Below are positions 45,001 to 48,000 of a DNA stretch of 50,003 bases, piece by piece (position 1 is the first letter of the stretch; each line of letters opens with the position of its first letter). Source of the stretch: a virus (lineage: Duplodnaviria > Heunggongvirae > Uroviricota > Caudoviricetes); IMG/VR virus record IMGVR_UViG_2609459850_000002, one strand, 5' to 3'. Position numbers: made by a program.

Positions 45001-48000
45001 CGAGATTCTACCTGCGTCAGAAAAAGCCAAACTCCTTAACCAGCTACGTGGACTAAACAAGCTCTACGAGGAAGCCTTCGAGAACATGCTGGCACTAAAG
45101 AAACGTAACCAGTAGCCACCGCTCACTACCCCATCCACAACAAAAAAAACCGACGTCTTAGTCGGTTTTTTTGTGCCATAACTTCTGCAAATCAGCTGTA
45201 TAACTAATATTTTTCCCTTGAAAAAACATTTACATAGTTACCAAATCAAAAATATCATACGCCATACTGTTGACTTAAAATATCCGCGTTACTAATATTT
45301 CTATCAAGAACAGCACGGCGCTGTAGGTTTTAGTTCCGCCACCCGGCGTTAAGGGGAAATGAGGTCAGCATGGATACTATCGAGCTTGGCAACAACGAAT
45401 CTCTGGTGTACGGCGTGTTTCCCAACCAGGACGGCACATTCACCGCGATGACGTATACCAAAAGCAAAACGTTTAAAACCGAAAATGGTGCCCGTCGCTG
45501 GCTGGAAAGAAACTCAGGTGAGTGATATGGATTTCGACACAATCATGGAAAAGGCTTACGAAGAATACTTCGATGGTCTTGCCGAAGGCGAAGAAGCTCT
45601 CAGCTTCAGTGAATTTAAACAGGCGCTTTCCAGTTCGGGAAAATCTAACGGCTGATAAGCGAAACAGCACCGCGAGGAATCAGTATGCAGAAACGAGAAC
45701 CCGTCATCATCGCGCCAGACTATACCGATGATGAACTTTATGAGTGGATGCGCCAGAAAATTAATGCAGTGCAGGATCTGAAATGGGCCAATGAAGCCAG
45801 GACTAAGCAGGCTGAAAATCTGTCCGCTCTGGAGCAGGATATCACCAGGCTGGAAAAAGCAGCGGCATTAAGCATTGCCAGAATGGTTACATACCCACGT
45901 TAATAGCTAACCAACGAGGCTAATAATGGAATTTAAAGATTTACCAATGCCATTCCAGGAAATGGCAGCGAATGTGGTTCGCTCTCAACTGGCGACTCTT
46001 GACCTGAGTACTGTAGAAAAGGAAACCATCGATACTATATCCGGTAACGTGCGTCGTGCCTTTATAGGTCTGTATGAAGAGAAGCGCCTATTCGGCGGAC
46101 AGAATTCGCCTGAAAACAAGAATCAAGCAAATGATGAGAAGCTGAAACACATTATCGCCTTACTTTTGGAAGACGCAAAACGTCTACAGCAACTGGAACC
46201 AAATGCAGGCACAGAGGCCCGCATTTGGATTGCCATGAAATCACTCAAATGTGAAAGCAGTGATTATTTCAAAACAACAATTAAAACTACTCAACTTTCG
46301 GGAGAGCTACTGAAGAAATTGCCATAAGAGCATGGTCTTTCTCTTGTTCTGCAAGATGAGCATTAATACCTGGTATGGTTTTTTCAAATTTATCTATCTG
46401 TTGAATAACAACTTCGCGGTATACGTTTGTTTTTGTACCACCAAGCGCAGCCGTTAATGCAGAAAGCATATTTAGTATCATATCAGTGCGATATGAAAGA
46501 ATCCTGATAGCTTCATCTTGTTTTTCAATAATAGATTGCAGGGCCTCAATTTGCTTTTTATCCATTTCACCCTCCTGAGGGTTGGTAATTAAGGAGTTCT
46601 CCACGGGTCAGGTGGAGTGCGTGCGCCGGACACGGGTGAACATCCGGCACTGACAGTTTACTGAAAGGATATGTCCCTGAAAAGTCAGGGCATAACGCGA
46701 AAGCGCACGGCGAAATTGGTCTCTCTGTACGGTGTCGTTAAATTTAGTTCGACCGTGCGCTTCCGGTTGTGGCACTCCGCGAAATGGCGCGGCGGTAAGT
46801 ATGGCGGGGGTATTTCTTCCCCCCTTGAGGACACCGGGGTGTCAGGTTGACCATACGCTTAAGTGACAACTCCGCTGCAACGCCCTCTGTTATCAATTTT
46901 CTGGTGACTTTTGGCGGTATCAGTTCTACTCCGTGACTGCTCTGCCGCCCTTTTTAAAGTGAATTTTGTGATGCGGTGAATGCGGCTCAGCGCACGCGGA
47001 ACAGTTAAAACCAAAAACAGTGTTATGGGTGGATTCTCTGTATCCGGCGTTAATTGTTAACTGGTTAACGTCACCTGGAGGCACCAGGCACCGCATCAAC
47101 AAAGTTCACTTCGGTGATGAAAGGTAGAGAAAATGTTGAATGTAGCTATTGAAAACCAGAACGGGTGGAATTATAGTGCACCTGCACCTCATAAAACGGG
47201 TGCCGGGCGTGGAAACCCGAAATCATTCACGGCGCATAACCGCGCTCAGGCGGTTTTTTTATGCGTTAAGCACAGCCACATTCGCATTATGGTGGGGCGT
47301 GCAGGGCAGCCGCAAGGCTGGCCGGGTTCCGTGATGACCGGTATTTCCACCCCTGTACGTCTCACCACCCTTATGGTCGTGGAAAACCTCGGTGGTGAGT
47401 TAATCAAATTCATCGCGGAGGCTGCCATCATGGCTACTATCCTTACCCTTTCTCACCCTGACGTAACCATCGAAAATGGTCGCGCTGTCACTACGTCTGT
47501 TGCGATCGCCGAGTTCTTTGGCAAACGCCACGAACGAGTGTTGGATAAAATTCGCAATCTGGACTGTTCAGCAAAATTCACTGAGCACAATTTTGTGTCG
47601 AGCGAATACACCGACTCAACCGGGCGCAAACTCCCAATGTACCAAATCACCAAAAACGGCTTCGTTTTCCTGGTGATGGGCTTCACTGGCAAAAAAGCCG
47701 CTGCATTTAAAGAGGCATACATTGCTGAGTTCGACCGCATGGAAGCTGAACTGCGCCAGAATAACGCCCCGTCTCCCGACAAAATGATTCACGGGGACGG
47801 ACGCACCCTGGTTATCCGTCTCGACGAACACGGCAATATCAAATTCACTGAAACCGTTCCTGACGGCGCAATGGTCTGCACCCTGGATACCTTCCTGTTT
47901 TATCTGGAGCAACAAGGCTGGACTCTTGTAAACCGGAGCGCAATTAAAAATATGACTGTGGAGCAATTGCTAAAAATTCATTGTTGAGGACGCGATAATG

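Follow-up and report, generated by a model that had tools for sequence, protein, structure and literature searches.

A conserved pseudoknotted RNA domain upstream of DicF in a Qin-like prophage, and its counterparts in phages P1 and P7

What lies directly upstream of the small RNA (sRNA) DicF in a prophage of the dicB type, and what might it be for? The question arises from IMG/VR virus record IMGVR_UViG_2609459850_000002, a stretch of DNA of 50,003 nucleotides (nt), here called the window, which contains a Qin-like lambdoid prophage. A highly structured non-coding region of about 300 nt, ending in DicF, had been described at 46605-46955 from the sequence alone, between a minus-strand gene and a Rha-like gene. 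The core of that description holds. The interval up to the Rha-annotated open reading frame (ORF) contains no ORF of 60 amino acids (aa) or more, the largest having 59, 58 and 55 aa; every complementary segment that had been listed was found at its position; and the DicF homologue with its terminator is matched by Rfam RF00039 over the full model (1-52) at 46899-46950, with 71.5 bits (gathering score 48) and an E-value of 7e-14. The neighbours of DicF, namely DUF1391 (ydfA), ydfC, DicB and DUF1482, are those of a dicB-type operon. One detail has to be turned around: the minus-strand gene, said to end at about 46565, has its ATG there and therefore starts at that point. We consider it very probable that the region is an untranslated, multi-hairpin part of the early-left transcript of this dicB-type operon, and that it serves as a DicF precursor processed in the manner described below.

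The structured segment is not peculiar to the window. The original prediction set the window apart from Qin, but Qin has the same upstream segment. Positions 46580-46960 are 90.9% identical to the ydfC-dicF spacer of Escherichia coli K-12 (query positions 15-395). Since the K-12 match begins 20 nt 3′ of the ydfC stop codon and extends through dicF, the segment is the ydfC-dicF spacer of Qin. By megablast, the region is matched in 4,315 of 5,426 complete E. coli genomes.

The processing of DicF in K-12 has been followed by Northern analysis and primer extension (Ragunathan et al. 2023, PMC10448788). In that work, which confirms Faubladier et al. 1990 in this respect, a 190-nt DicF species has an RNase III-dependent 5′ end, and a 53-nt species has an RNase E-dependent 5′ end. 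Both are derived from the polycistronic transcript of dicBp, no internal promoter being present, and a large share of the transcripts end at the DicF terminator. The 190-nt species accumulates in stationary phase and upon RNase E inactivation. The transcripts mapped are all of the strand called + here, and Fig. S1B of the same paper prints a sequence homologous to window positions 46716-46950. The earlier suggestion of a structured precursor or leader that yields DicF is thus backed both by the homology of the K-12 spacer and by the published 190-nt and 53-nt processing. By the same token, the locus with its DicF precursor, the RNase III and RNase E steps and the long untranslated region are already known from K-12, of which the window locus is a close copy.

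How does this processing map onto the window? Two domains precede DicF, D3, which is closed by a long helix, and D4, a pseudoknotted domain that we call the core (Table 1). A length of 190 nt, counted back from the DicF 3′ end, leads to 46761 (185-195 nt lead to 46766-46756). The interval 46761±5 falls on the 3′ arm of the D3 helix, at its base, directly 5′ of helix P0 of the core. Because the count reaches this arm, we infer that D3 is the RNase III hairpin and that the core makes up the 5′ part of the 190-nt RNA. The AU-rich linker GCCCUCUGUUAUCAAU, which is conserved across DicF-type loci, is the putative RNase E site at the window locus, and a terminator hairpin followed by UUUUU (46911-46955) closes DicF on its 3′ side.

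The course of events would then be as follows. Transcription would enter from the operon promoter 5′ of ydfA, in the window crossing two inserted genes as well, and would partly stop at the DicF terminator. RNase III would cut the 17-bp D3 helix to give a stable species of about 190 nt, with the pseudoknotted core as its 5′ body and DicF as its 3′ end. RNase E would cut the AU-rich linker, whereby the active 53-nt DicF would be freed.

The structure of the core has been derived by comparison. A set of 69 distinct core sequences was obtained by exact-word scans of IMG/VR contigs and of a phage collection, and pairs were counted on two alignments, one made by MAFFT and a second one fitted to the model. 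Standard pairs occupy 95.3% (MAFFT) and 96.6% (model-fitted) of the cells, against at most 58% when the partners are slid by 1-3 columns. The number of pairs changed on both sides is eight in the first alignment and nine in the second, and the observed covariation score was reached by none of 500 shuffles. Compensatory changes occur in P0 (GGC/GCU to GGU/ACC), in Pb (GUAUGG/CCAUAC to GCAUGG/CCAUGC) and in the pseudoknot helix, PK (GUUGUC/GACAAC to GUUGCC/GGCAAC). The ggggg...ccccc hairpin that had been noticed by eye proves to be a covarying one, Pc, in which CGGGG/CCCCG is replaced by CUGGG/CCCAG, CGAGG/CCUCG or CCAGGUG/CACCUGG. Two local hairpins that compete for some of the same bases, GACA/UGUC and GUCA-GGU-UGAC, were rejected: they are broken by substitutions in P1/P7 which are compensated in the pseudoknot helix.

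A covariance model of the core, R1, gives 139 bits at its place in the window. The Rfam scan proposed with the original prediction found DicF and left the core without any family at E up to 10; a comparison of homologues, of the kind proposed at the same time, yielded the covariation just described. A scan of genome contigs with a 15-mer was overwhelmed by chance matches, among which only Escherichia albertii was relevant.

Table 1. Positions of the genes and RNA elements around DicF in the window.
Feature	Position	Strand	Description	Basis
DicA-like helix-turn-helix repressor	44654-45115		Repressor of the Qin-like (dicB-type) lambdoid prophage	
ydfA/DUF1391, ydfB, ydfC	45685-45903 (ydfC, as read)	+	In this order	
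133-aa gene	45926-46327	+	Unknown function	
92-aa gene	46287-46565	minus	Convergent; ATG at 46565	
Structured region	46566-46898	+	Between the 92-aa gene and DicF	
Hairpin S1	46599-46617	+	CUCCAC (46599-46604), loop GGGUCAG, GUGGAG (46612-46617)	Sequence and minimum-free-energy fold
Hairpin S2	46625-46648	+	GCCGGA (46625-46630)/UCCGGC (46643-46648), 12-nt loop	Sequence and minimum-free-energy fold
59-aa ORF (MSLKSQGITRKR...)	46671-46850	+	Judged not to be a gene	
CCCUGA-AAAG-UCAGGG hairpin	46675-46690	+		Sequence and minimum-free-energy fold
Domain D3	46698-46765	+	Closing helix 46698-46714/46748-46765, about 17 bp	Inverted repeat and fold of variants
Core (D4)	46765-46888	+	About 120 nt, four helices and a pseudoknot	Comparative
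P0	46766-46773/46874-46881	+	Core helix	
Pa	46777-46781/46788-46792	+	Core helix	
Pb	46794-46796 plus 46799-46804/46851-46859	+	Core helix	
Pc	46806-46810/46819-46823	+	Core helix	
PK	46838-46843/46865-46870	+	Pseudoknot	
AGGUUGA	46844-46850	+	Near-invariant single strand	
Linker GCCCUCUGUUAUCAAU	46882-46897	+	AU-rich, single-stranded; putative RNase E entry/cleavage site creating the DicF 5′ end	
DicF sRNA	46898-46950	+	53 nt; U-run 46951-46955	Exact 53-nt match pattern
isrK/c4-a1b1/C4/Rha module	47171-47987		Inserted between DicF and dicB	
dicB, DUF1482, exonuclease gene			3′ of the inserted Rha module	

Upstream of the core the picture is more varied, and the five pairings originally listed for the region have come out differently: two are conserved, one is conserved in part, one is specific to the window and one is a chance complementarity. 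Along with Pc, the conserved one is agcgcacgg/ccgtgcgct, which belongs to the closing helix of D3 and was predicted in 26 of 26 sequence variants. This helix is imperfect at two points, an A·C mismatch and the bulged A46752, and it encloses a pyrimidine-rich inner hairpin, which varies freely across the variants, and the conserved GUCGUUAAAUUU. The ccctga-aaag-tcaggg hairpin stands in part: all of its pairs form in just 19 of 57 distinct homologues, and some others carry compensated arms (CUCUGA/UCAGAG), but the K-12 type retains only 4 bp. The gacaccggggtgtc hairpin is a palindrome in the window alone (1 of 57); elsewhere its 3′ half belongs to a helix of the pseudoknot. Finally, ggagtgc/gcactcc, a perfect complement in 13 of 42 homologues, displays no covariation, and both of its arms are engaged in other helices, so that we take it as fortuitous.

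The ccctga-aaag-tcaggg hairpin (CCCUGAAAAG) matches the boxB of λ at 9 of 10 bases. A λ-type nut site was considered and rejected, as the lower stem is broken in 38 of the 57 homologues; no boxA was seen on reading the sequence of the region, and no N-like protein is recognisable in the operon.

The remaining hairpins, S1 and S2, lie in a segment that is mosaic, with recombination breakpoints near 46573, 46603-46613 and 46673. At the S1 site other prophages carry an unrelated sequence which also forms a hairpin (GACCA-ACACG...CGUGU-GGUC), and one type has none. In S2 the stem is kept across homologues and the loop is variable (CACGGGUGAACA versus CACGGAUAAGAA). D3 and the core have a short motif in common, CGCGAAA..GCGCRCGGCG. 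Two IMG/VR contigs (L016 1630-1752 and L064 5219-5341) are without D3 and without the 5′ strand of P0, and their junction is inside this motif. To judge from the sequences, this suggests a deletion by recombination between the motif copies of D3 and the core, the copies themselves possibly being the remains of an old duplication.

Is the RNA really that of the + strand? The term “highly structured” is justified by the comparison of homologues and not by folding energy, which on the + strand is unexceptional: the z-score is -1.8 over 46605-46955 and 0.0 over the core (46765-46885), with -2.1 and -1.55 over 46694-46765 and 46596-46693, respectively. Relative to shuffled sequences the minus strand folds better, with a z-score of -3.5 over the region as a whole and of -3.7 over both 46694-46765 and 46596-46693. 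It could be proposed that the functional transcript is that of the minus strand, which would either act as an antisense RNA against the DicF precursor or serve the 92-aa gene as a long, structured 5′ untranslated region. A promoter for the 92-aa gene must lie on its right-hand side; the minus strand has a weak promoter-like site at 47060-47033, and the one A·C mismatch in D3 would become G·U in a minus-strand RNA. The core helices tell otherwise. About 246 of their cells are G·U pairs, which would turn into A·C mismatches on the minus strand; therefore, the core RNA is of the + strand. In addition, conservation of the region extends to K-12 and to most loci without the minus-strand gene, the promoter-like matches are at chance level (three found, 1.7 expected), and the mapped K-12 transcripts are of the + strand (PMC10448788). 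A minus-strand transcript as the functional RNA is thus very unlikely. On the + strand, a consensus scan, which is a weak test, found no sigma-70-like site in 46566-46898.

Could the region encode a small protein instead? The candidate on the + strand is the 59-aa ORF, which matches PHROG 8854 (unknown function, 59 positions) end to end with an E-value of 4e-40, and a “hypothetical protein” is annotated here in several phage records. On the minus strand, more than half of the homologues, K-12 among them, have a frame that stays open over almost all of the 360 nt; its median length is 115 codons, compared with 80±18 for shuffled sequences. The 59-aa ORF was judged on 57 distinct full-length homologues. 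The 59-aa ORF, which had been put forward as a possible gene with a poorly spaced ribosome-binding site, does have that site 2 nt from its ATG, but the ORF is intact in just 6 of the 57 and the ATG is absent in 51, the codon there being ATT or ATA in most. The protein-level conservation that was named in advance as a finding against an RNA element was accordingly not seen. The minus-strand frame starts with TTG, is broken in the window and lacks a third-position bias, the variable columns being distributed 34/41/33 by codon position. Indels in the homologues are mainly of 1 nt (65 runs) or 2 nt (18 runs). Pfam has no match for either the 59-aa ORF or the minus-strand ORFs, and PHROG has none for the latter. 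Moreover, the bases in question build covarying RNA helices, the 59-aa ORF overlapping those of D3, P0, Pa, Pb and Pc. We give almost no credence to a small protein, be it the 59-aa product or the 111-aa one of the K-12 minus strand; the region is non-coding on both strands. The minus-strand open frame may be a by-product of G+C-rich paired RNA, and PHROG 8854 together with the several “hypothetical protein” annotations probably reflects ORF calling on a structured RNA.

As a separate observation, the frame in K-12 Qin (L001 2984-3319, minus) comprises 111 codons, is antisense to dicF and its precursor, and is longer than base composition predicts.

Several points weigh against the reading of the region as a DicF precursor with a structured 5′ domain, or at least against parts of it. 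The processing assignments at the window locus rest on K-12 data and homology, and the RNase III cut has been placed from the length of 190 nt, the published “813/814” being in a numbering of its own. Because two extra genes, one of them convergent, separate ydfC from the region, read-through from the operon promoter is an assumption. The core folds no better than shuffled sequence, as its z-score shows, and the 195-nt RNA has a minimum-free-energy fold other than the structure supported by covariation. The core sequences are closely related, most of them being from E. coli prophages, with P1/P7 in addition; several of the “compensatory” changes may for this reason have arisen only once, when P1/P7 and the lambdoid phages separated. 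Lastly, single-stranded stretches such as AGGUUGA are nearly invariant from lambdoid phages to P1, and this would not be accounted for by a passive role in stability.

The core is not confined to DicF loci. In phage cdtI and in Stx2c-type phages it occurs alone, without the upstream hairpins, about 280 nt past a strong PL-like promoter. In P1/P7 it is found at about +36 from the C1-controlled Pban promoter, where it overlaps the annotated “dicF-like region” of P1. There is one copy per genome; a second one, whether near PR or as a diverged tandem repeat further 5′, was looked for in the window, in the whole cdtI genome and at other loci, and none turned up. A terminator-like hairpin with a T-run follows the pseudoknot at a distance of 52-99 nt in all 83 distinct downstream sequences (128 loci), and operon genes lie beyond it. 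The intervening “seed” and the terminator sequence differ by group: DicF, the 3′ half of DicF only, the P1 type, and others. Since seed and terminator vary in this way, the conserved unit appears to be the core plus a terminator, DicF being one of several 3′ ends.

What, then, is the role of the core? Within the precursor reading, we would best take it as a stable, nuclease-resistant 5′ domain that retains DicF as a precursor and offers the linker to RNase E. A domain that helps in storage and in ordered maturation, by RNase III first and RNase E second, is in keeping with the build-up of the 190-nt RNA in stationary phase and on RNase E inactivation. We regard this as possible, while leaning slightly away from calling it probable.

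A second role may be considered, for which the support is contextual: the core would act in cis on RNA polymerase during elongation, modifying it as HK022 put and Bacillus EAR do, so that transcription passes the DicF terminator and later terminators and continues into dicB, the exonuclease gene and the remainder of the early-left operon. The placement of the core, close to the P1 Pban promoter, past the cdtI PL-like promoter and inside the dicB operon of the window, in each case ahead of a terminator-like hairpin and further operon genes, would suit such a function, as would the lack of a recognisable N-like protein in the window operon and in cdtI. That the domain is conserved between lambdoid phages and P1 speaks for a partner supplied by the host rather than for a phage protein, and the near-invariant single-stranded nucleotides and the pseudoknot suggest specific recognition. 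Against this, the core has neither sequence nor model similarity to putL and putR of HK022 or to the annotated putL-like RNA of HK639, and its architecture of four helices and a pseudoknot is not that of the two put stem-loops. It is present once per phage and never on the PR side, many K-12 transcripts do end at the DicF terminator (PMC10448788), and no alternative pairing between core and terminator was found. In its broader form the proposal would be that the core represents an uncatalogued class of leader RNA, common to lambdoid early-left operons and the ban operons of P1/P7, which binds a host factor, RNA polymerase being the most attractive candidate, and so governs the passage of the terminator that always follows it, and that DicF-type sRNAs evolved from the 3′ end of the terminated leader. 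In either form we hold it to be unlikely.

Known classes of RNA were also tried for the core and discarded. Membership in the put family is contradicted by the absence of a blastn match, by local-alignment z-scores below 1.5 (9.3 for putL against putR) and by the finding that R1 detects nothing in HK022 or at the HK639 putL-like feature. An antisense RNA of the C4/CI type (RF01695) has no match in 46566-46898 at E up to 10, the genuine C4 being at 47285-47372. For the Pc loop as an antisense or anti-Shine-Dalgarno element, complements within -1.5 to +2 kb are no better than those of shuffled loops. Attenuation of the riboswitch kind was dismissed on inspection, as no core segment pairs with the 5′ strand of the terminator; the GGCGGUA of the core is identical to that strand. 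A tRNA-like structure or RNase P substrate was likewise set aside, since ARAGORN returned nothing and the only Rfam near-match was mascRNA, at an E-value of 9.6. Apart from these tests, CGGCG...CAUGCGUCG, within roughly the first 100 nt of the PL transcript of cdtI (L005 2218-2330), recalls stem I of the HK022/HK639 putL; the alignment z-score is about 1-1.4 and not significant.

Other features of the window deserve mention. Directly 3′ of DicF, in the dicF-dicB spacer, there is a partial STnc100-like match (46962-47103, +) with 36.6 bits (gathering score 47). Two full copies of STnc100, at 29953-30141 and 30417-30610 on the minus strand, adjoin two tRNA genes in the late region of the prophage, and in P1/P7 matches below the threshold lie just 5′ of tciA (L004 3842-3961, L006 3910-4025). 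STnc100 looks like a recurrent leader or intergenic RNA of phages rather than a host sRNA.

The Rha-annotated ORF is of 284 aa (47133-47987; “Rha family” is the PGAP label in a 99%-identical strain) and overlaps isrK at 47184-47260, c4-a1b1 at 47171-47223 and C4 at 47285-47372. Because the Phage_pRha domain begins after the ATG at 47430, the real gene probably starts at that codon. The upstream part of the ORF is then probably an RNA control region like immI of P1, driven by a promoter-like site at 47149-47177. Phage cdtI (orf44) has the same arrangement of Rha, isrK and C4.

Further away, short direct repeats are clustered at 43312-43437, inside a minus-strand ORF (42750-43796) whose counterpart in the 99%-identical strain (L002) is annotated as a protein with a DnaT-like single-stranded DNA-binding domain. 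The repeats are CGTGAC(T/A)(C/T)GTCGTGACA, present three times at spacings of 10 and 21 bp, and TCTTTATCTGT and TGCGCTCT, present twice each; they look like origin iterons within a replication gene. A full-length sok antitoxin RNA (RF01794, 117 bits) is located at 37673-37848 on the minus strand, and the prophage thus carries a module of the hok/sok type.

With regard to what is new, the processing steps published for K-12 can be assigned to defined, conserved RNA structures: D3 would be the RNase III hairpin, and the pseudoknotted domain would form the 5′ part of the 190-nt RNA. What is conserved widely is the upstream core with any terminator rather than the 53-nt DicF, and this unit extends to P1/P7 and to PL leaders in which the 3′ sRNA part bears no relation to DicF. 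The core is a candidate RNA family absent from Rfam and raises the question of the role of the 5′ domain of long DicF. We consider the pseudoknotted core, and its presence in P1/P7 and other PL leaders, a modest new lead.

Among the closest known systems is the ydfC-dicF spacer of K-12 with its long DicF. The order of hairpins, core, AU-rich linker and DicF is the same, and the 5′ end computed for the 190-nt RNA lies in the same helix. The window differs in the two genes (133 aa, +; 92 aa, minus) inserted between ydfC and the spacer, in the isrK/C4/Rha module inserted between DicF and dicB, and in small changes, including a U→G at 46839 that breaks one pair of the pseudoknot.

The “dicF-like region” of P1/P7, in the leader of the ban operon (misc_feature 68791-68892 of NC_005856), has a core that is 75-81% identical and scores 96-98 bits with R1. 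Compensatory changes occur in Pb, Pc and PK, and a terminator follows the core, as in the window. Unlike in the window, the core comes directly after the promoter, with neither a D3/RNase III hairpin nor a P0 of the lambdoid type, and the stretch from core to terminator is unrelated to the DicF seed, so that the Rfam DicF model finds no match there.

putL and putR of HK022 and the putL-like RNA of HK639 are similar to the core in being structured leader RNAs of lambdoid early operons that lie upstream of terminators, in phages that have no N protein. The put RNAs suppress termination and pausing in a way that depends on the zinc-binding domain of the RNA polymerase beta-prime subunit; with such an activity, the position of the core ahead of a terminator would be consistent. 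However, they are about 70 nt long, form two stem-loops in a V shape and are present in both the PL and the PR operons, whereas the core is of about 120 nt, is pseudoknotted and exists in a single copy.

Lastly, two other sRNAs may be compared with DicF, here by the titles of the reports on them. StxS is reportedly an sRNA that arises from early termination at PR′ of an Stx phage, and in MicL upstream stem-loops are said to guide RNase E. The likeness resides in an sRNA taken from the 3′ end of a longer, prematurely ended transcript and trimmed by RNase E. In the window, unlike in StxS and MicL, a large conserved pseudoknotted domain and a putative RNase III step precede the sRNA.

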